From a bacterium (GTDB lineage: Bacteria > Blakebacterota > Blakebacteria > Blakebacterales > JAWOFN01), in contig JAWOFN010000112.1 in NCBI GenBank assembly GCA_046497505.1, forward strand, positions 8,834-72,833: a stretch of DNA of 64,000 nt, read 5' to 3'. The notes beneath the pieces were generated by a model. That model was not told where the DNA came from. It saw only the letters and a list, made by a program, of their open reading frames with translations, and searched no databases. Below are positions 5,953 to 46,256 of this stretch, in pieces. Numbering within the stretch: position 1 is the stretch's first letter; each line of letters begins with the position of its first letter. A program made the translations under genes and the position numbers.

Positions 5953-5963
5953 GGTCGGGCTCC

Positions 5964-17098: not shown

Positions 17099-18793
17099 TC
17101 AGTGTCCTCCCGCCTGACCGTCCTTGCGGGGGTCCGATGCCGCCGCCCACCCGGGTGCCAGGCGCAGGATCGCCTGGGCCCCGCCGAAGGCCGTTCGGCC
17201 CTCGTCGGTGAGTTCGTGACCCATCCGGGTCAGCTCCCCACGGACCCGCCCCGGGATCGGAGCCTCCAGCGCCACCCTCCGGCCGCCCAGGTGCCGGAAT
17301 CGGGGGGCATCCACCGCCTCCTGCAGATCCATGCCGAAGACCAGGAGGTTGAGCAGGAGCTGCACGTGTCCCTGGGGCTGCATCGACCCCCCCATGACCC
17401 CGAAGGCCAGCCACGGCTCGATCCCCCCCTCGCTCCCCGTGCGGGTCACGAACCCCGGGATCAGGGTGTGGAAGGGGCGCTTCCCGGGTCCCACGGTGTT
17501 GGGATGGTCCGGCTCGGTGGTGAAGCCGGCTCCCCGGTTCTGCAGCGCGAACCCGGTCCCCGGTACCACGACCCCCGAACCGAACTCCCAATAGATGCTG
17601 TTGATGAAGGAGACCATGTTGCCGCGGCTGTCAGCCGCCGTCAGGTAGATGGTCTCGCTGGAGAGGTCCAGTTCCCCGGGCGCTGCTCCCTCGGAGGCCT
17701 CCCGGGGGTGGATGGCCTCCCTCCGGCGGCGGAGGAAGTCCTCCTCCAGCAGGTCCTCGGGGGAGGCCTCCATGCTGGTCGGGTCCCCCACGTAGGCCTC
17801 CAGGTCGGCGAAGGCCTGCTTCTTCGCCTCGATGAGGTGATGCAGGTAGGCGGGGCTGTTGTGCCCCATCCCCTCCAGATCGAAGGTTTCCAGTATCCCG
17901 AGCATCTCCAGGGCCGCGATGCCCTGGCCGTTGGGGGGAAGTTCCCACACGGTGTATCCATGGAAGGGGAGCCCCACCGGCTCCACCCATTCCACCCGGT
18001 GGGCCCTCAGGTCCTCCGGGGTGAGGAACCCGCCCTCCTGCTGGAGATGCTCCGCGATCGTGCGGCCCAGCTCGCCGCCGTACAGGTGACCCGGCCCCCG
18101 ACGGGCGATGGCCCTCAGCGTCGAGGCGTAGTCCGGGTTGCGGAACCACTCCCCCGCCCGCGGGGTGGTCCCGTCTTCCATGAGGTAGGTGTCCCGCGCC
18201 CCCTCGTCCCTCGTCAGACGCCCTGTCTCGGCCGCCCACTGACGAGCGATCTTGGGGGAGACGGGGAACCCCTCCTCCGCGAGGCGGATGGCCGGTCCCA
18301 GTGCCTGGGCGAGTTCGATCGTGCCGAACCTCTCCAGCAGGGCCGACCAGCCGGAGAGGGCCCCGGGGACCGTAACCGGCTCGGCCCCGAAGAGGGGGAC
18401 CCGGTCCAGGTCCCGCTCCCGCAGGGCCTGGCGGGTCATCCGGGACCCGGAGCGCCCGCTGGCGTTCAGACCGATGAGCGCGCCCTCCTCCGCCGACCAC
18501 ACGATGGCGAAGACGTCACCGCCGATCCCGGTCATGTGGGGTTCGGTGACGGTCAGGACCGCTGCCGCGGTCACCGCCGCGTCGATCGCGTTGCCCCCCT
18601 GCTCCAGGACCGCCAGTCCCGCGGAGGTGGCAAGGGGCTGGCTGGCAGCCACCGCGCCACGGGGGGCGTAGACGGTGGAACGTCCTGCCAGGGTCGTGGG
18701 ACGGTCCTCCGATCCCCCCTCCCCGCAGGCACCGGCCAGAAAGAGGAGGAGGACGAGGGGAACAGCCGCGGCTGCGGGAACGTATTGTGACAT
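17099..18793 (-). CDS. ggt: gamma-glutamyltransferase
   Basis: Signal/lipoprotein N-terminus. TGIGGDVFAIVW and the autoprocessing region ETIYLTAADSRGNMVSFINS, followed by GSGVVVPGTGFALQNRGAGF, are typical of GGT. Confidence 0.85.
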   Translation of the reverse strand: MSQYVPAAAAVPLVLLLFLAGACGEGGSEDRPTTLAGRSTVYAPRGAVAASQPLATSAGLAVLEQGGNAIDAAVTAAAVLTVTEPHMTGIGGDVFAIVWSAEEGALIGLNASGRSGSRMTRQALRERDLDRVPLFGAEPVTVPGALSGWSALLERFGTIELAQALGPAIRLAEEGFPVSPKIARQWAAETGRLTRDEGARDTYLMEDGTTPRAGEWFRNPDYASTLRAIARRGPGHLYGGELGRTIAEHLQQEGGFLTPEDLRAHRVEWVEPVGLPFHGYTVWELPPNGQGIAALEMLGILETFDLEGMGHNSPAYLHHLIEAKKQAFADLEAYVGDPTSMEASPEDLLEEDFLRRRREAIHPREASEGAAPGELDLSSETIYLTAADSRGNMVSFINSIYWEFGSGVVVPGTGFALQNRGAGFTTEPDHPNTVGPGKRPFHTLIPGFVTRTGSEGGIEPWLAFGVMGGSMQPQGHVQLLLNLLVFGMDLQEAVDAPRFRHLGGRRVALEAPIPGRVRGELTRMGHELTDEGRTAFGGAQAILRLAPGWAAASDPRKDGQAGGH

Positions 18794-18935: not shown

Positions 18936-20060
18936 CTACATGAGGGTGGCCAGGAAGATCCCCGCCGCCACCGCCGAACCGATGACCCCCGAGACGTTGG
19001 GGGCCATGGCCTGCATGATCACGTAGTTCTCCGGGTCCTCCTGGGCGCACACCATCTGACAGACCCTGGCGGAGTCCGGTACGGCAGATACCCCGGCGGC
19101 TCCGATCACCGGGTTGATCTTCTCCCTGCTGACCAGGTTGAGCAGCTTGGCGAACATCAGCCCCGCCGCGGTGGCGACCGCGAAGGAGGCCGCCCCCAGG
19201 GCGAAGATCATGATGCTCTCGGGCGTGAGGAACCGGCTCGCGTCGGTGGAGGTGCCCACGGTGAACCCGAGCAGGATGGTGATGATATCGATGAAGGCGG
19301 TCCGGGCCGTCTTGGCCAGGCGCTCCGTGACCCCCGATTCTTTCAGGAGGTTCCCGAAGAAGAGCATCCCAAGCAGGGGGATGGAGCCGGGTGCGATGAA
19401 TGCGGTGAGCAGGAAGGCGACCACGGGGAAGATCATGCGCAGCCTGGCACTCGGCTGGGGGGAGGGCTTCATCCGGATCAGCCGTTCCTCCCGGCTGGTG
19501 AGGAGCCGGATGATGGGGGGCTGTATCACCGGCACCAGGGCCATATAGGAATAGGCCGCCACCGCGATGGCACCCAGGTACTGCGGGGCCATCTGCGAGG
19601 AGAGGAAGATGGCGGTGGGACCGTCCGCGCCCCCGATGATGCCGATGGCGGCGGCCTCGTGCATCTCGAAGCCGAGAGCCAGCGACCCCAGGAAGGTCAG
19701 GAAGATACCGGCCTGAGCCGCCGCACCCAGCAGGATGAGCCGGGGGTTGGCCAGCATGGCCGAGAAGTCGGTCATCGCCCCGATACCCAGGAAGATCAGG
19801 GGCGGGTACCACCCCTGGCGGACACCCTGGTAGAGGATGCTGAGGACGCTCCCCTCCTCGTACACCCCGAGGTTCATCCCCGCCTGGAAGGGGATGTTGC
19901 CCACGAGGATCCCGAAACCGATGGGGACCAGCAGCAGGGGTTCGTAGTCCTTGCTGATGGCCAGGTAGATGAACACGCACCCCACCACGATCATGATGAG
20001 GTTGCCCAGGGTGAAGTGCCCGAGGGCACCGGCCTGGAGGAACTCGCGAAGGATGGTCAT
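18936..20060 (-). CDS. Na+-translocating decarboxylase membrane beta subunit (OadB/MmdB/GcdB family)
   Basis: 374 aa polytopic protein with conserved family segments (GAMTDFSAMLANPR, IGGADGPTAIF, NLLKESGVTERL). Confidence 0.85.
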   Translation of the reverse strand: MTILREFLQAGALGHFTLGNLIMIVVGCVFIYLAISKDYEPLLLVPIGFGILVGNIPFQAGMNLGVYEEGSVLSILYQGVRQGWYPPLIFLGIGAMTDFSAMLANPRLILLGAAAQAGIFLTFLGSLALGFEMHEAAAIGIIGGADGPTAIFLSSQMAPQYLGAIAVAAYSYMALVPVIQPPIIRLLTSREERLIRMKPSPQPSARLRMIFPVVAFLLTAFIAPGSIPLLGMLFFGNLLKESGVTERLAKTARTAFIDIITILLGFTVGTSTDASRFLTPESIMIFALGAASFAVATAAGLMFAKLLNLVSREKINPVIGAAGVSAVPDSARVCQMVCAQEDPENYVIMQAMAPNVSGVIGSAVAAGIFLATLM

Positions 20061-20082
20061 GGATCGGTCCGGTGGCTTGGGG

Positions 20083-20502
20083 CTACTCGAGTTCGACCAG
20101 GACCTGGCCCTCGCGCACCGAGTCTCCGGCCGCGACGGGGATGGCCTTCACCTTCCCGCTGGCGGGGGCGGCGATCGACGTGTTCATCTTCATCGCCTCG
20201 ACGACCAGCAGGGTCTGTCCCTTGCTCACCTCGTCACCCACCTCCGCCTTCAGTTCCACCACGGTCCCGGCGATGGGAGAGGCCACCGCCCCCCCCAGGT
20301 CCTTGCCCCCCGCGGCACCCGCAGGGGTCCGGGAGGGTGCGGAGCCGGGTGGGGGGGCCGGAGGCGTCGTCGGGGAAGCGGGGCCGCCGCCCCCGGGACG
20401 TACCGCCGGGAGGGCCCCGGTCTGGGGGAATCCCTCCCCCGGGTCCAGCACCTCCACTTCCACCTCGTACGCGACACCGTGGACCGTGATCTTCAGCTTC
20501 AC
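20083..20502 (-). CDS. biotin carboxyl carrier subunit of the decarboxylase (biotinyl domain with Pro/Ala linker)
   Basis: EAMKM biotinylation motif in a C-terminal biotinyl domain. A long P/A/G-rich linker is encoded by the GC-rich 20280-20420 stretch. GTG start with an AAGGGAAG RBS. Confidence 0.8.
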   Translation of the reverse strand: MKLKITVHGVAYEVEVEVLDPGEGFPQTGALPAVRPGGGGPASPTTPPAPPPGSAPSRTPAGAAGGKDLGGAVASPIAGTVVELKAEVGDEVSKGQTLLVVEAMKMNTSIAAPASGKVKAIPVAAGDSVREGQVLVELE

Positions 20503-20547
20503 GTCGATCTTCCCTTCATGGGGGCGGGCAGCAGGCCCGCCCTCGGT

Positions 20548-20886
20548 TCAGCTCTTCTTCTTCGGCATGATGTGACTGCCGAGGAGCACCGAGCGTCCCT
20601 GGGTGGCCCAGGGGCTGTGGGGGTTCTCGGCAGGAAGCAGTCTCCGGACGCTCCGGATCCTGAAGCGGCCCTCGATCATGGTGGCGACGGCGGCCGTGAT
20701 GAGCACGAGCGTCGTGTTGTCGATGGTGGGGGAGGACTCGGCGGGGCCGGCCTCCTTCTCGGAGGCCTTCGCGAGCCGCCGCTCGTCCAGGCGGCTCATG
20801 GTCTTCACCGCCAGGGAGATGAGGGCCAGGACACCGAAGACCATCACGATGCCTGCCGCACTGAGTACCAGGCCGTTCACGGGCAT
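20548..20886 (-). CDS. OadG-like small membrane subunit of Na+-pumping decarboxylase
   Basis: 112 aa with one N-terminal TM helix (LVLSAAGIVMVFGVLALISLAV) and a hydrophilic tail. It lies between the carboxyltransferase and biotin-carrier genes as in mmdADCB/gcd operons. Confidence 0.55.
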   Translation of the reverse strand: MPVNGLVLSAAGIVMVFGVLALISLAVKTMSRLDERRLAKASEKEAGPAESSPTIDNTTLVLITAAVATMIEGRFRIRSVRRLLPAENPHSPWATQGRSVLLGSHIMPKKKS

Positions 20887-20899
20887 CCGTTCGTTCCCA

Positions 20900-22450
20900 T
20901 CAGAGGGGGATCAGACCGTGCTTCTTCTGCGGCCGCACATCCCGTTTCGCCTTGACGACCTCCAGGGCGGCCGCGAGCCAGGGCCGTGTCTCGCTGGGCT
21001 CGATGACATCGTCGATCAGCCCGCTGCCTGCCGCCTGGAACGGGTTTCCGAACCGCTCCTTGTACTCCTCGATCTTCTCCTTGCGGGTGGCTTCCGGGTC
21101 GTCGGAGGCCTGGATCTCCCGGCGGTAGAGCACGTTCACGGCCCCTTCGGCCCCCATCACTGCGATCTCACCCGTGGGCCACGCACAGGTGCGGTCCGCA
21201 CCCATGTCCTTGCTGCACATGGCCAGGTACGCTCCGCCGTACGCCTTGCGCACCACCACGGTGAGTTTCGGTACCGTGGCCGCCGCGTAGGCGAAGAGCA
21301 TCTTCGCACCGTGCCGGATGATCCCCCCGTACTCCTGCTCCACCCCGGGCATGAAGCCGGGTACATCCACCAGGGTGACGATGGGGATGTTGAACGCGTT
21401 GCAGAAGCGGATGAACCGGCTGGCCTTGTCGGAGGAATCGATGTCCAGAACACCGGCCCGCTGTATGGGCTGGTTGGCCACGACACCGATGGTGCGCCCC
21501 ATGAGGCGTCCGAACCCCACGATGATGTTGGGGGCGAAGTGCTCCTGCACCTCCAGGAAGTCCCCCTGGTCCACCACGCGCAGTATGATCTCCTTCATGT
21601 CGTAGGGATCCCGCCCCTCAGCGGGCACCACCTCGTCCAAGGAGGGGTCCCCGACCGCGGTCTCCTCGTGGTATTCGGGATAGAAGGGCGGGTCCTCCAT
21701 GTTGTTGCTGGGGAGGAAGGAGAGGAGGCGCCGGGCGATGCGTACGGCGTCTTCGTCATCCGATGCCACGAAATGCACCACACCGGAGTAGTACGCGTGG
21801 CTGGAGACGCCGCCCAGTTCCTCGGCCGTCACATCCTCTCCGGTGACCTCCTTGATCACGCTGGGGCCGGTGATGTACATCTGCCCCTCCTGCTGCACCT
21901 GGATGATGAAGTCCGTGAGGGCGGGACTGTAGGCCGCTCCGCCGGCGCAGGGTCCGGCGATGATGCTTATCTGGGGGACCACACCCGAGAGGAGGACGTT
22001 GCGGAAGAAGATCTTGCCGTACCCGGAGAGGGCATCCACCCCTTCCTGGATCCGGGCACCGGCGCCGTCGTTGACGAAGACGAAGGGGTCGCCGGTCTTC
22101 ATGGCGCTCTCCATGATCTCGGCGATCTTCCGTGCCCCGGCTTCACCCACCGAGCCGCCCGCGACGGTGAAGTCCTGGCTGGCGGTATAGACGGGTCGGC
22201 CGTCCACGATACCCGATCCGGTCACGATCCCCTCGGCCGGCATCTCCCGACCCTGCATCCCGAAATGCACGGCCTTGTGCCGCATATGGAGGTGCGTCTC
22301 CTGGAATGTATCGGGCTCGAAGAGGAGTGCGAGACGTTCGCGTGCGGTGAGTTTTCCCTTGTCGTGCTGCTTCTCGATCCGTTCCGGGCCTCCGCCCTGC
22401 ATGAGCTTCTGACGCCGTTTACGGAGGTCCTCGATCGGCTTCTCCATCAT
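20900..22450 (-). CDS. acyl-CoA carboxyltransferase subunit (methylmalonyl-CoA / glutaconyl-CoA decarboxylase alpha; propionyl-CoA carboxylase beta family)
   Basis: Two crotonase-like carboxyltransferase halves. Conserved blocks GGARIQEG, IAGPCAGGAAYSPALTDF and VTLVDVPGFMPG. Start at the tandem ATG 22450/22447 with a G-rich RBS. Confidence 0.85.
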   Translation of the reverse strand: MMEKPIEDLRKRRQKLMQGGGPERIEKQHDKGKLTARERLALLFEPDTFQETHLHMRHKAVHFGMQGREMPAEGIVTGSGIVDGRPVYTASQDFTVAGGSVGEAGARKIAEIMESAMKTGDPFVFVNDGAGARIQEGVDALSGYGKIFFRNVLLSGVVPQISIIAGPCAGGAAYSPALTDFIIQVQQEGQMYITGPSVIKEVTGEDVTAEELGGVSSHAYYSGVVHFVASDDEDAVRIARRLLSFLPSNNMEDPPFYPEYHEETAVGDPSLDEVVPAEGRDPYDMKEIILRVVDQGDFLEVQEHFAPNIIVGFGRLMGRTIGVVANQPIQRAGVLDIDSSDKASRFIRFCNAFNIPIVTLVDVPGFMPGVEQEYGGIIRHGAKMLFAYAAATVPKLTVVVRKAYGGAYLAMCSKDMGADRTCAWPTGEIAVMGAEGAVNVLYRREIQASDDPEATRKEKIEEYKERFGNPFQAAGSGLIDDVIEPSETRPWLAAALEVVKAKRDVRPQKKHGLIPL

Positions 22451-22599
22451 CTCCCCCCCTGGGTCCCTGTCCCCGGCCCTCACCCTGTGACGGCCGCCAT
22501 TCCCGGCGGGCTGAGGGTCCCGCCGATATCCTCCACAAGATAGTACCTCTCCAGCAGAGGAAAGCCCGAAATCGACAGGGTGCCGGGTGATCAGCTATC

Positions 22600-24231: not shown

Positions 24232-24260
24232 TTGGACAGCTCCTCCTGTCCCGCTACAAT
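24232..24260 (+). promoter_or_regulatory. sigma70-like promoter candidate TTGGAC-N17-TACAAT upstream of the HMG-CoA synthase cluster
   Basis: Read directly: TTGGAC at 24232, a 17-nt spacer, and TACAAT at 24255. It is 135 nt upstream of the 24395 start. Confidence 0.3.
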
Positions 24261-24394
24261 GGCAGCGCCCTTGGGGGAGACCGGTCCCGAGGACCGCCCC
24301 CCGGGCTCGCCCGGATCCCGGGCACAGCAGCTGGACGACGCGGCATACCTCGGGGTGTGCCCGCACAACATCGCGCCTGCCAGGGGGATCAGCC

Positions 24395-25441
24395 ATGGTC
24401 GGTATCGTCGGGTACGGATCATACGTGCCCTGTTTCCGGATCAAAGTCGAGGAGATCGCCCGCCAGTGGGGCCAGGACCCCGAACCGGTGAAGAACGGGC
24501 TCATCGTCTACGAGAAGACGGTACCCGGCCGGGACGAGGACACCATCACCATCAGCGTGCAGGCCGCCCGCTACGCCATCCAGCGGGCGGGCATCGATCC
24601 TTCCCTCATCGGAGCGGTCTACATCGGCTCCGAGTCGCACCCCTATGCCGTCAAGCCCAGCGGTACCGTCCTCGTCGACGCGCTGGGGATCGGGCCGGAC
24701 GTGCACGTCTCGGACTACGAGTTCGCCTGCAAGGCGGGCACCGAGGCGATGTACGTGGCCATGAGCCACGTGAAGGCGGGAGAGATGCCGTACGCCCTGG
24801 GGATCGGAGCGGACACCTCCCAGGGGGCCCCCGGGGATGCCCTGGAGTACACCGCCTCGGCCGGGGGTTCCGCTTTCGTGATGGGTTCGGAGGGGGTGGT
24901 GGCCGAGTGCGAGGCCTCCTATTCCTACACCACGGATACGGCTGACTTCTGGCGGCGCGAGGGGCGGGAGTACCCCATGCACGGGGGACGGTTCACCGGG
25001 GAACCCGCCTACTTCCGTCACGTCCTCGGAGCCGCCAGGGGCCTCATGGAACGTACCGGTACCGAGGTCGGCGACTTCACCTGGGGGGTCTTCCACATGC
25101 CCAACGGCAAGTTCCCTCTCCGGGCGGCGACCACCCTCGGCTTCGAGAAGGAGCAGATCGAGCCGGGTTGGGTGGTGCGCTGGATCGGGAACACCTACTC
25201 CGGTTCCTCCCCCTGCGGGCTGTCCGCCACCCTGGATGCAGCATCACCCGGTGACCGGATCCTAATGGTCTCCTTCGGCTCGGGGGCGGGGAGCGACGCT
25301 TTCATCTGGAAGGTGACCGATCGTATCGAGGAGGTGAGAGACCGGGCCCCCCGGTTCAGCGACCTGATGGAGCGCCGGAAGATCTACCTGGACTACGGCA
25401 GGTATGCCAGCTTCCGCCGCAAGATCCTCATGAACGACTAG
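24395..25441 (+). CDS. hydroxymethylglutaryl-CoA synthase, archaeal type (UPF0219)
   Basis: N-terminus [12 protein letters not shown]..., [10 protein letters not shown] (active-site Cys), HMPNGKFP and SFGSGAGSD are characteristic of the archaeal-type HMGS. Confidence 0.8.
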
Positions 25442-25492
25442 ACCCTGCGGCTCCCGTATCTGGAGGCATCCATCGGAAGGAAGGAAGAGGTC

Positions 25493-26644
25493 ATGAGAGA
25501 AGCAGCGATCGTGGGCATCGGGATGACCGACTTCGGTGAGCTCTGGGGCTCCTCGCTCCGCCAGATGTTCACCGAGGCCGCGACGGCCGCCATCGAGGAC
25601 GCGGGCGTCGATCACATCGAGAGCATGTACGTGGGCTCCATGTCCCCGGGGCTCTTCGTCCACCAGGAACACATCGGGGCCCTGCTGGCGGACTACCTGG
25701 GCGTTGCGGGGATCCCCGCCGGCCGGGTGGAGTCGGCGTGCGCGTCGGGAGGGCTGGCCCTGCGGCAGGCGGTGCTCGAGGTCCTCTCCGGGGTATCCGA
25801 GGTCGTCCTGGCCGGGGGGGTGGAGAAGATGACGGACGGGGTGGACGCCACCGACGCCCTCGCCACCGCAGCGGACCAGGAGTACGAGGCGTTCGGAGGG
25901 ATCACCTTCCCGGGACTCTACGCGCTCATGGCACGGGCCCACATGGAGAAGCACGGGACGACCCGTGAGCAGATGGCGGACGTGGCGGTGAAGAACCACG
26001 CCAACGGTGCCCTGAACCCCCGGGCCCAGTTCCGGCGCCCCATCGAACGGGCAGACGTACTCACCTCCACCCTGGTTGCGGACCCCCTGCGCCTGCTGGA
26101 CTGTTCCCCCATCACCGACGGGGCAGCGGCCGCGGTGGTGACCACCGTGGAGAGGGCACGAGAGCTGGGAGGCCCCCTGATCCGGGTCCGGGCCTCGACC
26201 ATGGCCACCGACTCCCTGGCCCTCCACGACCGCCCCGACCTCACGAGCATCCCCTCGGTGGGCCGGGCGGTGAAGAGGGCCTTCCAGGACGCCGATCTCA
26301 CCCTCGATGACATCGATGTCCTGGAGGTCCACGACTGCTTCACCATAGCGGAACTCGTGGTCATGGAAGAGATCGGTCTGGTGGAGCCGGGCTCCTCGGG
26401 TCAGGAGGTCACCGCGGGCCTCACGGCCCGGGACGGGAAGCTCCCGATCAACACCAGCGGCGGGCTGAAGTCGAAGGGTCACCCGGTGGGCGCCTCGGGC
26501 ATCGCCCAGGTGTTCGAGATCGTCGAACAGCTGCGCGGGAGCGCCGGCGAGCGGCAGATCGAGGGCGCGCGCATCGGCATGGCACAGAACATGGGCGGCT
26601 CCGGTGCGAGCTGCGTAGTCCACATCCTGGAGGCGATATCATGA
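25493..26644 (+). CDS. thiolase (acetyl-CoA C-acetyltransferase), archaeal-type partner of HMGS
   Basis: [12 protein letters not shown], active-site [17 protein letters not shown] and C-terminal GGSGAS. Strong GGAAGGAAGG RBS. Confidence 0.8.
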
Positions 26645-27036
26645 CGGTCCCACGCTATACACGCGAGATCCCCCAGCGCTACCGCCTGGAGGCGGGCCGG
26701 TGCGAGGGGTGCGGGAAGGTGAGCTTCCCCCCCCGTCAGGTGTGTCCTTCCTGCGGGGGCCGGAAGCAGGAGACCATCCGACTGGAGCCCTCCGGCACCA
26801 TCCTCTCCTACACCGCCGTACACGTGGCCGCGGAGGAGTTCGATACGGGCACCCCGTTCGTGGTCGCCGTCGTGGAGACCCCGGAGGGAGCGAGGCTCAC
26901 CGCCCAGGTGGCGGACTGCGACCCCTCGGAGGTGGCCATCGGGAAGAAGGTGCGGCTGGAACTGCGCAGGGTCCGGGAAGAGGGCAAGGCGGGCATCCTC
27001 CAGTACGGGTACACGGCGGTGCTGGGATCGGCATGA
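26641..27036 (+). CDS. DUF35 OB-fold / rubredoxin-like zinc-ribbon protein (scaffold of the thiolase/HMGS complex)
   Basis: [20 protein letters not shown] four-Cys zinc ribbon followed by an OB-fold. The ATGA overlap with the thiolase stop indicates translational coupling. Confidence 0.75.
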
Positions 27037-27178
27037 TCCCGGGATTCCCTTGAATCGTCTGCGGTTTCCCCGGCTCTTTACCTTTATGAGGGGCGGGAGG
27101 AGAAGCCCACCCGCCGGATGAACCGACCCGCGCGCCTCCACGACCGTGGGGCGCCGACCGATCATGAGAGGACCGAGT

Positions 27179-27832
27179 ATGCCGTTTCTGGACGAGAAGG
27201 TACAGGGTGAGGTGAGGGAGCAGCTCGCCGAACTCGAGGAGGAGGTCTCCCTCCTGCTGTTCACCCGCGAAGAGGACTGCCAGTTCTGCGACGAGACCGC
27301 GCAGCTGCTTCGGGAGGTCGCCGATCTGAGCGCGAAGGTGAACCTGGAGGTCCGCGACCTGGAAGAGTCCATGGAGGTCGCCGAGCATTACCAGGTCGAC
27401 AAGGTGCCGGCGCTGGTGGTGCAGGGTGAGCAGGACCACGGCATCCGATTCTACGGTATCCCCTCCGGATACGAGTTCGGCTCCCTGCTCGAGATCATCC
27501 GCCTGGTGAGCAAGGACGACCCGGAACTGGGCGAGGAGCAGCGCGGGAAGCTCGCTTCCCTCGAGCACCCGGTCCACCTCCAGGTGTTCGTGACCCCGAC
27601 CTGCCCCTACTGTCCCCGGGCGGTCGTGGCGGCGCAGAAGATGGCCATGGCCAGCGAGTGGGTCCGGGCCGACATGGTGGAGGCCAGCGAGTTCCCCGAA
27701 CTGACCCAGCACTATCAGGTACAGGGCGTTCCCAGGACGATCATGAACGAGGAGCACCACATCGAGGGGGCCGTCCCCGAGGAACACCTCCTGGAATGGG
27801 TACTCTCCGAGGCGGGGTCCTCCGGAGAGTAG
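27179..27832 (+). CDS. protein disulfide oxidoreductase, glutaredoxin-like with two thioredoxin-fold units (Pyrococcus PDO-like)
   Basis: Two CxxC sites (CQFC and CPYC) separated by about 110 aa. GAGAGGA RBS. Start ATG at 27179 (MPFLDEKVQ). Confidence 0.7.
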   Translation: MPFLDEKVQGEVREQLAELEEEVSLLLFTREEDCQFCDETAQLLREVADLSAKVNLEVRDLEESMEVAEHYQVDKVPALVVQGEQDHGIRFYGIPSGYEFGSLLEIIRLVSKDDPELGEEQRGKLASLEHPVHLQVFVTPTCPYCPRAVVAAQKMAMASEWVRADMVEASEFPELTQHYQVQGVPRTIMNEEHHIEGAVPEEHLLEWVLSEAGSSGE

Positions 27833-27910: not shown

Positions 27911-28534
27911 ATGGATCCCCCGACATCCTCCCCGAGGGAAGACCGACAGGAGAAGGAACTCCTCCAGGCCGCAGCCGAAGGGGACCCGGAGGCGTTCACC
28001 TCCCTGATGGACCTGTACGAGGACCGTCTCTTCGGCTTCGGTATGCGGATGTGCGGGCATCGGGAGGACGCGGAGGACATATTCCAGGAGACCTTCCTCA
28101 CCGCCTTCCGCAAGCTCGATCAGTATCGGGGTGAGGGGTCGCTCAAGAGCTGGCTCTTCAAGATCGCCTCCTCCCACTGCCTCAAGAAGAGGCGGAAGCG
28201 GTCAGGTGAACCGGACCAGCACCTCTCGGTAGAGGAACTAACACCCGAGCGTCTCCGCCCCATCAGTCAGGGGCCCTCCCTGACCGGCGACCCCGAGGTA
28301 CCCCTGGAGGTGGTGCTGAAGGATGAACTCTCCCGGCACATCACCGGGGCCATCGAAGCCCTCCCCCCCGACTACCGGGTGGTGCTGATGCTGCGCGACG
28401 TGGAGGGCTTCAGTACCGGGGAGACCGCGGAGATGCTCGAACTCTCCGAGTCGGCGGTCAAATCGCGTCTGCACCGGGGGCGGATGGCGGTGCGGGAGTA
28501 CCTGCAGCCCTATCTCGAGGAGGGTGCCCGATGA
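27911..28534 (+). CDS. RNA polymerase ECF sigma factor (SigR/RpoE-like)
   Basis: Sigma70 region 2 (DIFQETFLTAFRKLDQYRG) and region 4 (VLMLRDVEGFSTGETAEMLELSESAVKSRL). Confidence 0.85.
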   Translation: MDPPTSSPREDRQEKELLQAAAEGDPEAFTSLMDLYEDRLFGFGMRMCGHREDAEDIFQETFLTAFRKLDQYRGEGSLKSWLFKIASSHCLKKRRKRSGEPDQHLSVEELTPERLRPISQGPSLTGDPEVPLEVVLKDELSRHITGAIEALPPDYRVVLMLRDVEGFSTGETAEMLELSESAVKSRLHRGRMAVREYLQPYLEEGAR

Positions 28535-28788
28535 GCGGTGAAGAGATCACCTGCCGCGAACTGGTGAATCGTCTCTCGCTCTACATCGACGGCGAGCTGA
28601 GACCCCGCATGCTCCGCGAGGTGGAACGGCACCTGGAGCGATGCGGCGAATGCAGCCACTGTGCCGACGAGATCAGGGCCACCATCCGCCTCATCCACGA
28701 GCGGGCGTACGAACCCCTCCCCTCTTCCGAACGTGAGCGGATGCGGACCCGGCTCTGGAGGAGCCTGGCGCTCGGCACCGGGGAGTGA
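28531..28788 (+). CDS. ZAS-type anti-sigma factor (RsrA-like zinc finger)
   Basis: Cys8, His34, Cys38 and Cys41 have the same spacing as the RsrA ZAS motif (C-x25-H-x3-C-x2-C). The ATGA overlap with the sigma gene is typical of sigma/anti-sigma pairs. Confidence 0.7.
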   Translation: MSGEEITCRELVNRLSLYIDGELRPRMLREVERHLERCGECSHCADEIRATIRLIHERAYEPLPSSERERMRTRLWRSLALGTGE

Positions 28789-28874
28789 GACCCGGCTTGC
28801 CGTCGGAAAACACCTTTCTCCCCTGCCCGCGATCCGGAACCTTGTCCTGTAGAACCCTACCGGGAGGTAATCCT

Positions 28875-29441
28875 ATGTACCGATTTCTGTTCCGCACCGC
28901 ACTTCTGGTCAGCTTCCTCGCCGTCGCCGCATGCGGCGGGCAGCAGGGCGAGGAGACCGTGTTGAACCTGCCCACCGGTCCCGACCGGGCCGTGGCCGTC
29001 CTCCACGCTCCGGACGGGTCCCCCCGGGGCACGGTGACCTTCACCGACACCGAGGAGGGGGTGAGGGTCGTCGCCGACGTCCGCGGGCTGGAACCGGGCG
29101 CCCACGGGTTCCATCTCCACGAGTACGGCGACTGTACCGCCTCTGACTTCACCTCCGCCGGAGGTCACTTCAATCCCACCGGAGCCCCGCACGGCGGCCC
29201 GGACGACCCGCAGCACCACGCCGGGGATTTCGGGAACATCATGGTGGGCGAGGAGGGCACCGGTCACGCGAAGCTGGTCTCCCAGATGATCAGCCTCGAC
29301 CCTGGACCCGCTTCCATCCTGGGCAGGGCCGTCATCATCCACGAGGGTGAGGACGACCTGGAGAGTCAGCCCACCGGTTCCGCCGGCGGACGCGCCGCCT
29401 GCGGGGTGGTGGGAAGAGCTCCCGCCCCGGAAGAGATGTAG
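28875..29441 (+). CDS. sodC: Cu/Zn superoxide dismutase, periplasmic
   Basis: Signal/lipoprotein N-terminus (LVSFLAVAACGG). HGFHLHEYGDC, GGHFNP, HAGDFGN and the C-terminal GGRAACGVVG Cu/Zn SOD blocks. GGGAGG RBS. Confidence 0.85.
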   Translation: MYRFLFRTALLVSFLAVAACGGQQGEETVLNLPTGPDRAVAVLHAPDGSPRGTVTFTDTEEGVRVVADVRGLEPGAHGFHLHEYGDCTASDFTSAGGHFNPTGAPHGGPDDPQHHAGDFGNIMVGEEGTGHAKLVSQMISLDPGPASILGRAVIIHEGEDDLESQPTGSAGGRAACGVVGRAPAPEEM

Positions 29442-29472: not shown

Positions 29473-29771
29473 GACCTCCCTCAGGCCCTCTGCGAGGGGT
29501 CTATAATCTCAAGGAGCGAGGCGTCCACCTCCACCTCCGAGGAGAGGAGGTTCTGGGCGTCCGTCTTCCCCTGCGGGTCGAGGAGCAGGGAGAGGGTCCC
29601 CCGCCGCTCAGGGCGTCGTGGAGGACGAAGTTCAGGGCCATCAGGTTGGGGAGTTCGTACCGGCCGATCTCACCCCGGCACAGCCTCCTCGGGGATCCTT
29701 CCGCATGTCCCGAAGCAACGGCTTTCCACCACCGGGGATGGACCCGGACAGCCTGGAGGTGCTGCGGGCCT

Positions 29772-30845
29772 TCAGGGCCGGTAGCCTGACTTCGCCAGGT
29801 CGAGCCACCTGCGGAGCCGCTCCCAGCCCGGCTCCAGGACCACGGCACGCCCCCGGATATCGGTCTCGCTGAGCCAGCTCACCATCATCCCGTGGTATTC
29901 CCCCCGCGCCCGAAAGGCCTGGAAGACGAACCGGTGTCGGCCGGCGATCCAGTCCCATCGTGGATCCCGGACGGTGATGTGCCCCTCGCTGTAGAGGCTG
30001 TCCTCCACATTCTGCACCTCCCCGGGGACCACCTTCACACTCCGATCCTTTCCTGCCAGCACCACCGGGAGACTCTCCAGCGCCGCCTGGAAGAACTCCC
30101 GCAGGGTACCGGTCCGATCGTCCTGCCTTCGGAGGAGCACCATCCCCACCGATTCGGTGTCCATCGACCAGAGGGCCCCATCCTCGCGGGTGACCTCCTC
30201 TCCCCATCTCCCCCACTGCCAGCTCTCGGGGATCCTCAAGCCCACGGAGAGTCGCGGTGCCCTGACGGCCCGGATATGGGCCGGGACCATCGGCGGTGCC
30301 GGCCGTATGGGCCCGTGACAGGCCGCTGATGCCGCCATCACCTCCAGATGGTCCATCCACCGCGGATCGGTCTCCAGGGAGCGGTCCAGGAGGGTCTCCG
30401 CCGCGAACGTCCTGCTGCTCCGGCCGCAGTACCAGAGCCGCACGGCCCGGATCGTCCCCCCCTCCTCCCGCTCCAGGGCCCAGAGCGTGTGACCCCGGTG
30501 GGTCTCATCCGAAGGGACCGCTTCCGACGGTCCCCATCCCCTGCCCGTCAGCCGGGAAGCCCGATCGGCGGCATCGGCTGCAGTGGCTGGAGCTCCCTCA
30601 CCCACCCGTGCAGACCAGTGGAGGAGCAGCCAGCTGCGCTGTCTGAACTGGTAGAGGATCAGGCGGGCCGTCTCCGGACCGCCGACGTCCGAGACCCGGG
30701 TCCAGCTCCCCAGGGGCTTCTGGAGGAAGCTCATGTCCACCTCGGCCCTCCCTCCGGGCTGCGCCCCGGCGGGAGCAGGAGCCCCCGGGAGTCCGCTGAG
30801 GAGCAGGAGGGCACAGAACCAGGGCAGGGAGAGCGGAGGGAGCAT
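29772..30845 (-). CDS. hypothetical secreted protein (358 aa)
   Basis: ORF 29772..31217 trimmed to ATG 30845, which gives a classic signal peptide (MLPPLSLPWFCALLLLSGLPGAPAPAGAQ). No family recognised. Confidence 0.5.
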   Translation of the reverse strand: MLPPLSLPWFCALLLLSGLPGAPAPAGAQPGGRAEVDMSFLQKPLGSWTRVSDVGGPETARLILYQFRQRSWLLLHWSARVGEGAPATAADAADRASRLTGRGWGPSEAVPSDETHRGHTLWALEREEGGTIRAVRLWYCGRSSRTFAAETLLDRSLETDPRWMDHLEVMAASAACHGPIRPAPPMVPAHIRAVRAPRLSVGLRIPESWQWGRWGEEVTREDGALWSMDTESVGMVLLRRQDDRTGTLREFFQAALESLPVVLAGKDRSVKVVPGEVQNVEDSLYSEGHITVRDPRWDWIAGRHRFVFQAFRARGEYHGMMVSWLSETDIRGRAVVLEPGWERLRRWLDLAKSGYRP

Positions 30846-31023
30846 GACCGGACCTCCGGGAGGGTGGAAGGGGACCGAACCGCCGGATGTGCGGCGTTGA
30901 CACCCCGTGACGGGGCAGGGTACGGTGCGGATGGGGGTCGGACAGCCCCTCTGACCCCGTGAACCGGACTCCGGCCGCACTGACGTCTTATTACAGCAAC
31001 CCTGCGACAGGGGATCTCCTGGT

Positions 31024-31905
31024 ATGATCGAGCGGGACCGTTCGCGGACTCCGGGTCCCTCCCGACTCCTCACCAGCGCTCTCGCGGGAGCAGCCGCGGG
31101 TACGGCGGTGGGGCTGGGTGCATGGTGGGCCCTGGACCAGCTCATCCTGGCCGCCTCGGGTACCGGGGCCCCGGCAGGACTGGCCCTCGCCCTGGCCTCT
31201 CTGGGGGGCAGCATCACCGCCCTGCTCCTGGCCTACCGGCTCCTCATGCGGCGCGCTTCGGAGAGTGACCTGCTCCGGCTGGTGGTGGAGTCCACCGCCG
31301 CGGGGGTCTGGATCGTGGATCGGGAATTCGACTCGGTCTGGCTCAACGACAGCATGCGCCGGCTCCTGGGCGAGGAGCCGACCAGCGGCAGCACCGTCTT
31401 CGACTACTTCGGTGAAGAGGACCGCCGAAAACTGGAAGAGGCCCGGCAAGAGCGCCGGCGGGGAATATCCAGTGCCTATCAGGCCACGGTCCGCCGCCCG
31501 GACGGTACGGAACGGGTCGTCTACATCATCGGGACCCCCATATACGGCCCCGACGGCCGACACCTCGGTTCCTTCGGGTTCTTCATGGACATCACCGACC
31601 AGCAGAAGGCCGCCGAGGAAGCCGCCGAGGAGGCCCGTGTCGAGACCCTCATGGCCACCGTGGCCCGTCTCAACCACAAGATCAACAACGCCCTGATGGT
31701 GATACGCGGGCAGGCGGAGGTCAGCATACGGAAGGTGGAAGAGGAGGGTCCCGTGCACGCGTTCCAGCGGGTGATCGACCAGGTGGACCTGATCACCGGC
31801 GAGCTCAAGTCCCTCAGCGAACTCAGGGAGGTCCAGCTGGAGGACTATCTGGGCTCCCGTCCCATCCTGAGCGTTCCGGAACCGGGGACCACCCCGGAGG
31901 AGTGA
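31024..31905 (+). CDS. membrane-anchored PAS domain protein with a HisKA-like H-box but no ATPase domain
   Basis: Two N-terminal TM segments. A PAS-like core (VWIVDREFDSVWLNDSMRRLLG...GTPIYGPDGRHLGSFGFFMDITD). Then ARLNHKINNAL (H-box-like). The protein ends about 60 aa later without N/G boxes. Confidence 0.6.
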   Translation: MIERDRSRTPGPSRLLTSALAGAAAGTAVGLGAWWALDQLILAASGTGAPAGLALALASLGGSITALLLAYRLLMRRASESDLLRLVVESTAAGVWIVDREFDSVWLNDSMRRLLGEEPTSGSTVFDYFGEEDRRKLEEARQERRRGISSAYQATVRRPDGTERVVYIIGTPIYGPDGRHLGSFGFFMDITDQQKAAEEAAEEARVETLMATVARLNHKINNALMVIRGQAEVSIRKVEEEGPVHAFQRVIDQVDLITGELKSLSELREVQLEDYLGSRPILSVPEPGTTPEE

Positions 31906-35552: not shown

Positions 35553-36608
35553 ATGGACTACTTCCGCGAGATCGCGAAGCGGAACCACCGGCAGGTGCTC
35601 TTCGGGAACGACCCGGAGTCCGGCCTCCAGACGATCATCGCCATCCACGACCTGACCCTGGGGCCCGCCCTCGGCGGGTGCCGGATGAAGACCTACCTCA
35701 GCACCTATGAGGCACTGGTCGACGCACTCCGGCTCTCCCGGGGGATGACCTACAAAGCCGCAGCCGCGGGTCTCGACCTGGGCGGCGGGAAATCCGTGAT
35801 CATCGGTGACCCCGAGACGCAGAAGTCGGAGGACCTCCTGAGGGCCTTCGGCAGGATGGTGGACGGACTCAACGGGCAGTACATCACCGCGGAGGACGTG
35901 GGCACCACGGTACCCGACATGACCATCGTCCGGGAGGAGACCGAGTACGTGACAGGACTCCCCGAGGACATGGGCGGGTCGGGCGATCCCAGCCCGGTCA
36001 CAGCCCTGGGGGTCTTCCACGGGCTCCGTGCCGCCACCGAGGAGGTCTATGGCAGCGACGACCTCGACGGCAAGAGCGTGGCGGTCCAGGGTCTGGGCAA
36101 GGTCGGCTGGCACCTGGCGGAGCACTTGGTCGAGGCCGGTGCCGAACTGATCGTGGCCGACATCCGTGAGGACGTCGTGGAGAAGGCCCGGGAGGAACTC
36201 GGTGCCGAGGTCATGGCCCCCGACCGCATCCACGCCGCGGAGTGCGATATCTTCAGCCCCTGTGCCCTGGGCGCGGTGATCAACAACCAGAGCATCGAGG
36301 AGCTGAAGTGCCGGATCGTGGCTGGTGCCGCCAACAACCAGCTGGCGGACGAGAAGGTCCAGGGGCCGATGCTGAAGCTCCGGGACATCCTCTACGCGCC
36401 GGACTTCGTCATCAACGCCGGCGGGCTGATCAACGTCTCGGGGGAACTCGACCCCGACGGCTACGACCGCGAGAAGCAGCTTGCCGCGACCAAGCGCATC
36501 TATGATTCGATGAAGGAGTGCTTCGCGCTGGCCAAGGAGCGGAACGTCCCCACCGCCGAGGCCGCCATGATCATGGCGGAGGAGCGTATCGAAGCGGCGA
36601 AGAGGTAG
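35553..36608 (+). CDS. leucine (Leu/Phe/Val) dehydrogenase, short Glu/Leu/Phe/Val dehydrogenase family
   Basis: GGCRM...K catalytic region (LGGGKSVI), Rossmann GLGKVGWHLAEHL, and a 351-aa length typical of LeuDH/PheDH. Confidence 0.8.
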   Translation: MDYFREIAKRNHRQVLFGNDPESGLQTIIAIHDLTLGPALGGCRMKTYLSTYEALVDALRLSRGMTYKAAAAGLDLGGGKSVIIGDPETQKSEDLLRAFGRMVDGLNGQYITAEDVGTTVPDMTIVREETEYVTGLPEDMGGSGDPSPVTALGVFHGLRAATEEVYGSDDLDGKSVAVQGLGKVGWHLAEHLVEAGAELIVADIREDVVEKAREELGAEVMAPDRIHAAECDIFSPCALGAVINNQSIEELKCRIVAGAANNQLADEKVQGPMLKLRDILYAPDFVINAGGLINVSGELDPDGYDREKQLAATKRIYDSMKECFALAKERNVPTAEAAMIMAEERIEAAKR

Positions 36609-45078: not shown

Positions 45079-45079
45079 T

Positions 45080-46174: not shown

Positions 46175-46256
46175 CCCCCCCGGCATCCCCTCCCCGACCC
46201 GTCCCGGGAACGCCCCGGTGACGGATGGGGTCGGAACCGGAACCGGAGGATCCGTC

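Follow-up and report, generated by a model that had tools for sequence, protein, structure and literature searches.

A thiolase/HMG-CoA synthase/DUF35 operon in an FCB-superphylum bacterium and its suggested link to leucine and isovalerate metabolism

Results

Three adjacent genes and their upstream region

The window (the whole 64-kb stretch of DNA analysed here) has a GC content of 67% and contains three co-directional open reading frames with a GC3 of 0.88-0.90 and the codon bias of real genes. They code for an archaeal-type HMG-CoA synthase (HMGS), a thiolase and a DUF35 protein, and lie exactly where the earlier note had put them. These genes and two candidate features upstream of them are as follows:

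24233-24260, forward strand: candidate sigma-70-like promoter (TGGACA-N16-TACAAT) some 135 nt ahead of the HMGS start codon (consensus match, footprint in one relative)
24342-24361, forward strand: 8-bp hairpin in the 5' leader, GGCAUACC-UCGG-GGUGUGCC (-15.6 kcal/mol, z -2.2)
24395-25441, forward strand: HMGS, archaeal-type (UPF0219), 348 aa (TIGR00748, 538 bits; 6ESQ_I, E = 1e-136)
25493-26644, forward strand: acetoacetyl-CoA thiolase, archaeal/SCP2-type, 383 aa (6ESQ_A, E = 2e-103; NF004720, 505 bits)
26641-27036, forward strand: DUF35 scaffold protein, 131 aa (PF12172 and PF01796; 6ESQ_E, E = 7e-30)

The thiolase stop codon and the DUF35 start codon overlap in a 4-nt ATGA, the only overlap in the trio; HMGS and thiolase, which the earlier note had also called translationally coupled, are 51 nt apart. 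SD-like sites are present at all three genes, among them AGGGGGA 7 nt upstream of HMGS and AAGAGG ahead of the thiolase ATG. The promoter-like site, described earlier as TTGGAC-N17-TACAAT, was borne out and is the same element as TGGACA-N16-TACAAT shifted by one base; it agrees with the consensus at 10 of 12 positions, and two sites of this quality occur in 5.6 kb, where shuffled sequence would be expected to give 0.3. Both hexamers are kept in the closest relative, locus L088 (HMGS 93% identical), as TTGACA-N16-TACAAT with a diverged spacer. The upstream regions of relatives at 78-79% do not align with the window, and promoter conservation is thus that of one sequence (L088). The leader hairpin has its support from two sequences, the window and L088, where it reads GGCAUGCC-GAAC-GGCAUGCC (z -2.7) and includes one A-U to G-C compensatory pair. 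Because of the thiolase/DUF35 overlap, the SD-like sites, the promoter-like site kept in L088 and a gene order that recurs in other genomes (see below), the three genes are, as judged from sequence, one operon predicted to encode an intact thiolase/HMG-CoA synthase/DUF35 complex.

Family assignment and catalytic residues

The best PDB matches of the three proteins are the three kinds of chain in the Methanothermococcus complex (6ESQ/6ET9), namely chain I for HMGS (60% identity), chain A for the thiolase (47%) and chain E for DUF35 (45%), which upholds the earlier description of the trio as the archaeal-type set. Family-model scores, used in place of a phylogeny with labelled archaeal sequences, place the synthase in the archaeal class (TIGR00748, 'HMG_CoA_syn_Arc', 538 bits, cut-off 353) and neither with MvaS (TIGR01835, 113.5 bits, cut-off 360) nor with FabH (fabH models, 57-60 bits, cut-offs 249-292), a grouping that the earlier note had named as one that would refute its reading. 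The thiolase passes NF004720 (505 bits, cut-off 420) and scores 519 bits, below the cut-off of 600, against the equivalog NF053570 ('AcCoTHIOL_METTL'), while the DUF35 protein combines a PF12172 zinc ribbon at residues 8-41 with a PF01796 OB fold at residues 48-108.

Catalytically competent complexes of this type have been defined by a Glu-Cys-His-Asn tetrad in HMGS and by CxS, HDxF and GHx motifs in the thiolase (PMC12960953). In the window HMGS the tetrad is present as E80, C112, H234 and N266, aligned with the corresponding residues of 6ESQ_I, together with the motifs SESHP, EFACKAG, FHMPNG and GNTYSG. The thiolase keeps CxS (C83-A-S), HDxF (H280-D-C-F283) and GHx (G-H330-P), and the CxxC...CxxC zinc ribbon of DUF35 is formed by C21, C24, C35 and C38. 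Since none of the catalytic or zinc-binding residues is lost and the 6ESQ chains are the best matches, we regard the trio as a genuine HMG-CoA-forming complex rather than a Phl/Muc acyltransferase, an MvaS or a FabH; its production of HMG-CoA is predicted by homology, from 45-60% identity and full conservation of the catalytic residues.

Neighbouring genes in the window

The trio had been described as lying next to genes for leucine dehydrogenase and acyl-CoA decarboxylase, a description that does not hold, and neither neighbour is conserved. The gene for a Glu/Leu/Phe/Val-family dehydrogenase (35553-36608) is 8.5 kb downstream of the trio, past eight unrelated genes, and its product has the tryptophan dehydrogenase ScyB as best NCBIfam match, below the cut-off. 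The decarboxylase operon (18936-22483) is on the opposite strand to the trio, with an FAD oxidoreductase gene in between; its carboxyltransferase is of the MmdA type (methylmalonyl-CoA; 782 bits to TIGR01117) and only 34% identical to the MCC beta that accompanies the trio elsewhere. We considered this enzyme as a trio-linked methylglutaconyl-CoA decarboxylase and ruled it out on account of its MmdA type. With such a carboxyltransferase, and with different neighbours in the closest relatives, the neighbours that had been invoked as context are not functionally tied to the trio.

A Liu-type set (MCC beta and alpha, methylglutaconyl-CoA hydratase, isovaleryl-CoA dehydrogenase) does not adjoin the trio here, and tblastn found no hydratase, acyl-CoA dehydrogenase or biotin carboxylase in the 64 kb. 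The same stretch contains no HMG-CoA reductase (HMGR), mevalonate kinase or later mevalonate enzyme, and tRNA and Rfam scans of it gave no matches. No intact AtuA was detected in the window; a decayed feature of related type was found downstream of the trio:

29484-29848, reverse strand: frameshifted AtuA_ferredoxin-like remnant (two tblastn segments in different frames; PF23544, 28.1 bits, cut-off 27)

A local HMM matches the remnant in two frames (1.4e-10 and 3e-4), with the break at a G-run near position 29598; possibly it is what is left of an AtuA/AtuA-ferredoxin pair such as many relatives have beside the trio. The ORF at 29772-31217 on the reverse strand was tried as a divergent AtuA upstream of the remnant and rejected, as neither Pfam nor the local HMM matched it. 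This ORF looks secreted and has a low-complexity false N-terminal extension.

Host, distribution and inheritance

The host is a bacterium, as had been supposed: an ECF sigma/anti-sigma pair is encoded in the window, and the nearest relatives of the window's NuoD are those of Ignavibacteria, Marinimicrobia/Fidelibacterota and Bacteroidota (60-64% identity). An archaeal origin, raised by the GC content of 67%, is ruled out by the same sigma factor with its zf-HC2 anti-sigma partner, a CapB Mur-ligase-like gene and the FCB-like NuoD. In a collection with one genome per bacterial or archaeal species, relatives of the HMGS are encoded at at least 596 genomic places, and nearly all of the 80 that we inspected among these carry FCB-superphylum lineage names (HMGS identity 64-72%). 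Carriers include the cultured species Thermosulfidibacter takaii, whose HMGS is 73% identical to that of the window, and Melioribacter roseus, in which an HMGS is encoded by a metagenome-assembled genome assigned to the species. The rarity in bacteria that the earlier note implied is therefore not upheld, and bacterial occurrence had in fact already been published (PMC7852524). The trio and its flanks do not differ in GC content, and the composition gives no sign of recent transfer. Given a NuoD closest to those of FCB bacteria, an HMGS that shares 64-72% identity with proteins from mostly FCB-named loci and a trio that matches its flanks in GC, we conclude that the operon is most probably an ancient feature of the FCB superphylum passed on vertically, not a recent archaeal import. 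It is nothing out of the ordinary, but a bacterial orthologue, conserved across many species, of a known and structurally characterised complex.

Gene neighbourhoods in related genomes

The order HMGS-thiolase-DUF35 recurs in related loci: of 88, 83 have the thiolase and 79 have DUF35, with most of the gaps at contig ends. At least one gene for AtuA, AtuA-ferredoxin, an MCC-beta-type carboxyltransferase or a crotonase lies within 10 kb in 37 of the 55 loci with enough flanking sequence. The next gene on the same strand, 0-400 nt past DUF35, encodes MCC beta in 13 loci and AtuA in about 17. MCC beta adjoins the trio in 18 loci, nine of which also have a biotin carboxylase and 11 a hydratase; acyl-CoA dehydrogenase is found in 9/88. 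The carboxyltransferase of these relatives scores 720 bits against Pseudomonas aeruginosa MCC beta (3U9R_B) and 706 against human MCCC2, and the clusters with MCC beta further encode biotin carboxylase, biotin carrier, an AtuE/LiuC-like hydratase and acyl-CoA dehydrogenase. In locus L086 the order is ACAD-CT-AtuA-HMGS-thiolase-DUF35-AtuAfd. Neither AtuA nor AtuA-ferredoxin has a sequence-level homologue in the PDB; by fold search only, the predicted fold of the relatives' AtuA matches entry 9ERQ of the nucleotide-binding citramalate lyase CmlA (PDB 9ERQ/9EVF).

Two other arrangements were seen. In the closest relatives (L081-L085 and L088) the trio stands alone or with a thioredoxin-like gene, and in 21 loci of Ignavibacteria it directly follows miaA, the gene of a DMAPP-using enzyme. 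In 84 loci, covering 1.27 Mb, short motifs for HMGR (DAMGxN), HMG-CoA lyase (RDGLQ, GLGGCPY) and GHMP kinases were absent up to 10 kb from the trio, and neither a lyase nor a reductase was found among the ORFs scanned in the MCC-beta loci.

Discussion

Whether the complex serves a mevalonate pathway or catabolism, as the earlier note asked, is a legitimate question, and the evidence leans towards the leucine-type option by way of synteny in other genomes rather than anything in the window. Our preferred reading, to which we give a probability of roughly 0.55, is that the window encodes an intact, vertically inherited FCB complex whose predicted product, HMG-CoA, belongs to the network of leucine, isovalerate and iso-fatty acids rather than to an archaeal-like mevalonate pathway. 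The thiolase would catalyse the unfavourable condensation of two molecules of acetyl-CoA to acetoacetyl-CoA; with thiolase and synthase held together by the DUF35 zinc-ribbon/OB protein, the synthase would at once add a third acetyl-CoA to give HMG-CoA, pulling the first reaction forward. The HMG-CoA would then join a network of branched C5/C6 acyl-CoA compounds comprising HMG-CoA, 3-methylglutaconyl-CoA, 3-methylcrotonyl-CoA and isovaleryl-CoA. A point against this reading is that the carboxylase beside the trio of relatives is ATP-dependent, which fits leucine breakdown towards HMG-CoA and would require some consumer of that product. Because the window lacks liu and atuA genes except for the decayed AtuA-ferredoxin, and because the closest relatives lack such neighbours as well, the leucine/isovalerate role, while most likely, is extrapolated from gene neighbourhoods in the genomes of other phyla. 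Our literature search found no publication that ties HMGS to isovalerate or leucine degradation in FCB phyla.

Mevalonate synthesis is the sole demonstrated role of the homologous complex (6ESQ/6ET9; PMC12960953), and the window complex could be its entry point, supplying HMG-CoA to an HMGR and later enzymes encoded elsewhere and so to isoprenoids as in archaea, alone or beside the MEP pathway. The intact catalytic residues and the position of the trio directly behind miaA in Ignavibacteria agree with this; mevalonate-pathway genes are reported alongside MEP genes in some Bacteroidota (PMC11129491), and the window covers just 64 kb of the genome, while archaeal HMGR genes need not adjoin the trio either. 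We nevertheless consider this explanation unlikely, given that reductase and kinase motifs are missing both from the window and from the surroundings of the trio in the 84 loci, and that the recurrent neighbours are of the liu/atu type and not mevalonate genes. Moreover, in Cloacimonetes metagenome-assembled genomes that carry these genes the MEP pathway is complete and the mevalonate pathway is represented by acetoacetyl-CoA thiolase (AACT) and HMGS only, with nothing beyond (PMC7852524), and a survey of bacteria with at least three mevalonate enzymes found the archaeal-type pathway in Chloroflexi as the only phylum, the FCB lineages with archaeal-type enzymes being missing from it (PMC6107057). 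Far less probable is a repurposed complex that, like PhlACB or MucABC, C-acetylates a small-molecule acceptor in secondary metabolism and makes no HMG-CoA. Bacterial HMGS/ACAT/DUF35 complexes with such a function and the same architecture do exist, and PhlA, PhlC and PhlB are detectable homologues of the trio, but their HMGS tetrad and thiolase HDxF motif are lost (PMC12960953), whereas the window proteins retain both; no biosynthetic-cluster neighbours were found around the trio, and scores against the Phl chains fall far below those against the archaeal ones (given below).

The complex might also run in reverse, as the last step of a leucine/isovalerate pathway without HMG-CoA lyase, in which three acetyl-CoA would be formed from HMG-CoA and two CoA; in AtuA-containing lineages, activation or cleavage of the free carboxymethyl arm would be assisted by a nucleotide-dependent AtuA/AtuA-ferredoxin lyase. 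This would be in keeping with the 18 loci in which MCC beta adjoins the trio, often with biotin carboxylase or hydratase, with the flux towards HMG-CoA that an ATP-dependent carboxylase implies, and with the absence of the lyase motif from those loci. The unfavourable thiolase and favourable synthase reactions would roughly cancel to a sum near equilibrium. HMG-CoA synthase is, however, held to be practically irreversible, with no reverse activity known; the window has neither liu genes nor an intact AtuA, and were AtuA itself the lyase, the synthase would be needless for breakdown. We therefore judge reverse use to be quite improbable. A broader proposal, tentative and in our estimation less likely than not, is that the 'archaeal mevalonate' complex of FCB bacteria is the non-isoprenoid HMG-CoA end of a lyase-free leucine/isovalerate pathway, working with MCC and hydratase or with a two-part, CmlA-related AtuA lyase, and perhaps reversible between HMG-CoA and three acetyl-CoA.

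For the window itself the result mostly clarifies matters: the operon signals neither a pathway of archaeal type nor a recent transfer. The first two 'mevalonate' enzymes are retained in hundreds of FCB lineages, most of them anaerobic; where checked, these use the MEP pathway and have the trio next to AtuA or to genes of leucine catabolism. Should the link to leucine and AtuA prove functional, it would provide a role for AtuA/DUF1446 and connect leucine with acetyl-CoA by a path independent of HMG-CoA lyase, and it would call for caution in labelling these genes a 'partial mevalonate pathway' in metagenome annotations.

Comparison with known systems

The thiolase/HMGCS/DUF35 complex of Methanothermococcus thermolithotrophicus (PDB 6ESQ, 6ET9), reportedly described by Vogeli et al. 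in PNAS in 2018, shares with the window trio three subunits of the same families encoded by adjacent genes, the HMGS tetrad, the thiolase motifs and the zinc ribbon. It differs in that the window comes from an FCB bacterium with no mevalonate genes near the trio, and in that the operons of relatives pair with liu/atu-type genes. The archaeal complex is a solved structure, whereas complex formation, a fused CoA-binding site and channelling of acetoacetyl-CoA in the bacterial members are predicted from homology and conserved co-location.

The Friedel-Crafts acyltransferases PhlACB (PDB 5M3K) and MucABC/SmaATase (PDB 9SKH) have the same three-protein architecture in bacteria, with all three subunits homologous, and are set apart by the lost residues discussed above. 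Against the archaeal chains the window proteins reach two to three times the scores that they reach against those of 5M3K (459 vs 207 bits for HMGS, 349 vs 121 for the thiolase and 107 vs 52 for DUF35). MvaS-type synthases (PDB 1XPK, 1X9E) catalyse the same reaction and belong to the same superfamily but need no DUF35 partner and sit in mevalonate clusters, and the window HMGS reaches only 88 bits against 1XPK. The benzoylsuccinyl-CoA thiolase BbsAB (7PXP) and Ltp2-ChsH2(DUF35) (6OK1) also combine an SCP2-type thiolase with a zinc-ribbon/OB DUF35 partner, but without HMGS, and the window proteins score far below the cut-offs of NF053628 (189 vs 750 bits) and NF053627 (50 vs 250).

The Liu and Atu clusters of Pseudomonas resemble the loci of relatives in which the trio adjoins a LiuB-like MCC beta, a LiuD-like biotin carboxylase and carrier, an AtuE/LiuC-like hydratase, acyl-CoA dehydrogenase and AtuA. 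Unlike the Liu clusters, these loci lack LiuE (HMG-CoA lyase) by motif and have the trio in its place; in contrast to the Atu clusters, they encode AtuA as two separate proteins, one of 450 aa and a ferredoxin-like one of 106 aa. No liu or atu gene adjoins the trio in the window. The broader proposal made above, if correct, would have a counterpart in citrate synthase and ATP-citrate lyase as a pair.

According to work attributed to Bode, Muller and co-workers, Myxococcus xanthus reportedly has an alternative isovaleryl-CoA pathway made up of MvaS, LiuC, AibA/B and AibC. There, as in our preferred reading, the HMG-CoA made by HMGS goes into 3-methylglutaconyl-CoA and isovaleryl-CoA for iso-fatty acids, in place of or in addition to mevalonate. 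In M. xanthus the synthase is of the MvaS type and the decarboxylase is CoA-transferase-like, whereas the FCB clusters have an ATP-dependent carboxylase; the pathway nonetheless stands as a precedent for a non-isoprenoid role of HMGS.

Organization of the trio operon

The window carries an intact operon predicted to encode an archaeal-type thiolase/HMGCS/DUF35 complex, in a bacterium of the FCB superphylum. Because GC content is uniformly high (63-71%), long ORFs occur on both strands, and real genes were told from spurious ones by third-position GC. The three co-directional genes (HMGS, thiolase and DUF35; hereafter the trio) lie at exactly the coordinates assigned to them in the earlier note.

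Features of the operon and its leader
24233-24260 (+): sigma-70-like promoter candidate, TGGACA-N16-TACAAT
24342-24361 (+): 8-bp hairpin in the HMGS leader, -15.6 kcal/mol, z about -2.2 to -2.7
24395-25441 (+): HMGS, 348 aa
25493-26644 (+): thiolase, 383 aa
26641-27036 (+): DUF35 protein, 131 aa

SD-like purine runs are found at all three starts. The translational coupling proposed in that note is borne out for thiolase and DUF35, which overlap at ATGA, but not for HMGS and thiolase, which are 51 nt apart. Its promoter candidate is also present: sites this good number 2 in 5.6 kb against 0.3 expected, and in L088, the locus of the nearest relative found (HMGS 93% identical), both hexamers are conserved while the spacer has diverged. 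L088 has the leader hairpin too, one A-U pair being replaced by a compensatory G-C; there it consists of two copies of the palindrome GGCATGCC, which could equally be a protein-binding site.

HMGS scores 538 bits on the NCBIfam model TIGR00748 ('HMG_CoA_syn_Arc', cut-off 353); the MvaS-type model gives it 113 and FabH models about 60, which answers the earlier question of whether it might instead be a 3-oxoacyl-ACP synthase III. The thiolase scores 505 bits on NF004720 (cut-off 420) and 519 on the Methanothermococcus-named equivalog NF053570, under its cut-off of 600. The third protein combines a ChsH2/DUF35 zinc ribbon with an OB fold.

Host and distribution

Genes in the window include those for an ECF sigma factor and its zf-HC2 anti-sigma factor, as well as a CapB/CapC pair and a nuo operon of the 14-subunit type. 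NuoD has metagenomic relatives at 72-93% identity, and in the next tier (60-64%) the named matches come only from Ignavibacteria, Marinimicrobia/Fidelibacterota and Bacteroidota, a kinship that makes the host an FCB-superphylum bacterium of high GC from a poorly sampled lineage.

With one genome scanned per species, at least 596 genomic places encode a relative of this HMGS. The best 80 of them (64-72% identity) fall in Ignavibacteria, Bacteroidota, Fidelibacterota, WOR-3, Cloacimonadota, Krumholzibacteriota, Gemmatimonadota, Calditrichota, Fibrobacterota and similar lineages. A protein search returned at least 8000 homologues, one from Thermosulfidibacter takaii and many already named HMG-CoA synthase by JGI. 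Given so many bacterial carriers, and a trio GC equal to that of its flanks, the operon is a common bacterial one that was apparently inherited vertically. The trio is ordinary in its phylogenetic setting, and the surprise once attached to an archaeal-type operon in a bacterium finds no support. Vogeli et al. in 2018 reportedly placed the tripartite complex in some bacteria.

Other features of the window are listed here as observations in their own right.

4642-8589 (-): four-gene cluster resembling soluble group-3 NiFe hydrogenase (large subunit, Oxidored_q6 small subunit, FAD/NAD-binding subunit, 4Fe-4S subunit)
17099-18793 (-): gamma-glutamyltranspeptidase
33099-35528 (+): 809-aa Lon-like protease with archaeal LonB AAA-LID and LonC helical domains, a further 'archaeal-flavoured' protein
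37543-39840 and 39933-42200 (+): tandem paralogues, each an Na+/H+ exchanger, TrkA_N and PTS EIIA-2 fusion
43494-46862 (+): CapB-like Mur ligase, CapC and DUF6305 protein, a putative poly-gamma-glutamate synthesis set

Gene neighbourhoods

Surroundings of the trio in the window
18936-22483 (-): Na+-translocating methylmalonyl-CoA-type decarboxylase operon, upstream, complete (MmdA-like carboxyltransferase, gamma subunit, biotin carrier, membrane beta subunit)
27146-27832 (+): two-domain protein disulfide oxidoreductase, directly downstream (TIGR02187, 274 bits)
27911-29441: ECF sigma factor, zf-HC2 anti-sigma factor and Cu/Zn superoxide dismutase, after the oxidoreductase
29484-29848 (-): frameshifted AtuA_ferredoxin-like (PF23544) fragment, broken at a G-run near 29598

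Two genes formerly taken as metabolic context do not hold up as such. The supposed leucine dehydrogenase, a member of the Glu/Leu/Phe/Val family, lies 8.5 kb from the trio, and its best model is tryptophan dehydrogenase, under cut-off. The decarboxylase is on the opposite strand; with 782 bits on TIGR01117 its carboxyltransferase falls in the MmdA type, and it shares just 34% identity with the one accompanying the trio in other genomes. The disulfide oxidoreductase also follows the trio in L088 (3571-4221); the flanks are wholly different in relatives at 78-79% identity.

ORFs were called and clustered in 88 loci; thiolase follows HMGS in 83 and DUF35 is present in 79, most gaps lying at contig ends. 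Two same-strand arrangements recur. Ignavibacteria and Bacteroidota have PCMT-MiaA-HMGS-thiolase-DUF35-AtuA-AtuA_ferredoxin-prfB, and WOR-3, TA06, Stahlbacteria, Cloacimonadota, Coatesbacteria and others have HMGS-thiolase-DUF35-carboxyltransferase-(cupin)-crotonase-biotin carboxylase-biotin carrier, sometimes with acyl-CoA and 3-hydroxyacyl-CoA dehydrogenases. The trio-linked carboxyltransferase matches 3U9R_B at 720 bits and human MCCC2 at 706, compared with 483 for geranyl-CoA and 277 for propionyl-CoA carboxylase, and is assigned by these scores as methylcrotonyl-CoA carboxylase (MCC) beta; the crotonase is nearest to AtuE/LiuC-type hydratases. At least one recurrent partner occurs in 37 of the 55 loci with adequate flanks. 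MCC beta begins no more than 400 nt past DUF35 in 13 loci, and AtuA does so in about 17; hardly any locus has both AtuA and the hydratase/carboxylase set. Two metagenomic loci read acyl-CoA dehydrogenase-carboxyltransferase-AtuA-HMGS-thiolase-DUF35-AtuA_ferredoxin and AtuA-TPR-trio-AtuA_ferredoxin.

A Pfam scan of leftover ORFs in the relatives' loci returned only selfish-element inserts and further acyl-CoA enzymes. Small genes of selfish-element type interrupt the Cloacimonadota operon (locus L073, 12314-12691 and 13723-14202; locus L028, 12441-12827): one for a 23S rRNA intervening-sequence protein separates thiolase from DUF35, and one for a HepT-like toxin follows DUF35. In locus L087 (655-kb contig) the thiolase (11063-12213) is called as two ORFs of 189 and 190 aa, which indicates a frameshift or assembly error in an otherwise intact trio. 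Upstream of the trio in locus L011 (1-9893) and similar WOR-3/TA06 loci, long same-strand acyl-CoA gene arrays look like a large amino-acid fermentation supercluster, with a second carboxylase set, methylmalonyl-CoA mutase, an epimerase-like glyoxalase, alanine dehydrogenase, acetyl-CoA hydrolase/transferase and two Cys/Met PLP enzymes.

The window itself has no AtuA gene. On the opposite strand, 2.5 kb downstream of the trio, is the AtuA_ferredoxin-like fragment. Either decay of a former gene or a homopolymer sequencing error could explain it, and it is consistent with an ancestral AtuA/trio linkage that decayed in this lineage.

Possible role of HMG-CoA

The trio would condense three acetyl-CoA to HMG-CoA, with acetoacetyl-CoA channelled. 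Based on synteny in other genomes and the literature, we suggest, at a probability of roughly 55%, that this HMG-CoA belongs to the methylglutaconyl/methylcrotonyl/isovaleryl-CoA network and not to the mevalonate pathway. Our literature search found no link between the trio genes and leucine or isovalerate metabolism in the carrier phyla. A tertiary 3-hydroxy carbon with a carboxymethyl arm is common to citramalate, HMG-CoA and the Atu intermediate 3-hydroxy-3-isohexenylglutaryl-CoA. For the last of these, a long-standing but unproven proposal makes AtuA the lyase (PMC4847356).

The earlier note had left the choice between an archaeal-like mevalonate pathway and catabolic use of leucine or acetoacetyl-CoA; its observation is confirmed and its interpretation partly borne out, in that the archaeal-type complex stands and neither the surprise nor the window neighbours are supported. 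A role in mevalonate synthesis, its other genes lying elsewhere in the genome, seems unlikely to us. The 64-kb window holds no mevalonate gene, nor any MEP gene. Motif scans covering 84 loci (1.27 Mb) for HMG-CoA reductase, HMG-CoA lyase and GHMP kinase came back empty. Black Sea Cloacimonadota, cultivated or binned, have the full MEP pathway (PMC11129491), and a survey requiring at least three mevalonate enzymes found MEP in virtually every phylum and the archaeal-type pathway, among bacterial phyla, in Chloroflexi only (PMC6107057). Somewhat more doubtful still is reverse operation, the trio forming a lyase-free end of leucine breakdown, possibly AtuA-assisted; its attraction is that the carboxylase beside the trio in relatives is ATP-dependent and that no HMG-CoA consumer is encoded nearby. 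What deserves follow-up is the conserved association of the trio, across FCB lineages, with MCC or AtuA.

Comparison with known complexes

In a search of all PDB sequences, the top match of each trio protein is one chain of the Methanothermococcus thermolithotrophicus complex (6ESQ/6ET9).

Trio proteins against the 6ESQ/6ET9 chains (identities from local BLAST)
HMGS: E=1e-136, 60% identity
Thiolase: E=2e-103, 47% identity
DUF35: E=7e-30, 45% identity

A 2026 study of repurposed bacterial complexes separates HMG-CoA-forming complexes from Phl/Muc-type acyltransferases by an E-C-H-N tetrad in HMGS and by CxS, HDxF and GHx motifs in the thiolase (PMC12960953). Here the tetrad (E80, C112, H234, N266) and the thiolase motifs (C83-A-S, H280-D-C-F, G-H330) are complete, and DUF35 has both CxxC pairs. 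A Phl/Muc-like acyltransferase is contradicted by these retained catalytic residues and is very improbable. Assembly of the complex, channelling of acetoacetyl-CoA and enzyme activity are what we infer from the sequences. By every sequence-testable criterion the trio belongs to the archaeal-type complex, since all features of HMG-CoA formation are retained and its scores against PhlA, PhlC and PhlB are two to three times lower than those against the 6ESQ/6ET9 chains.
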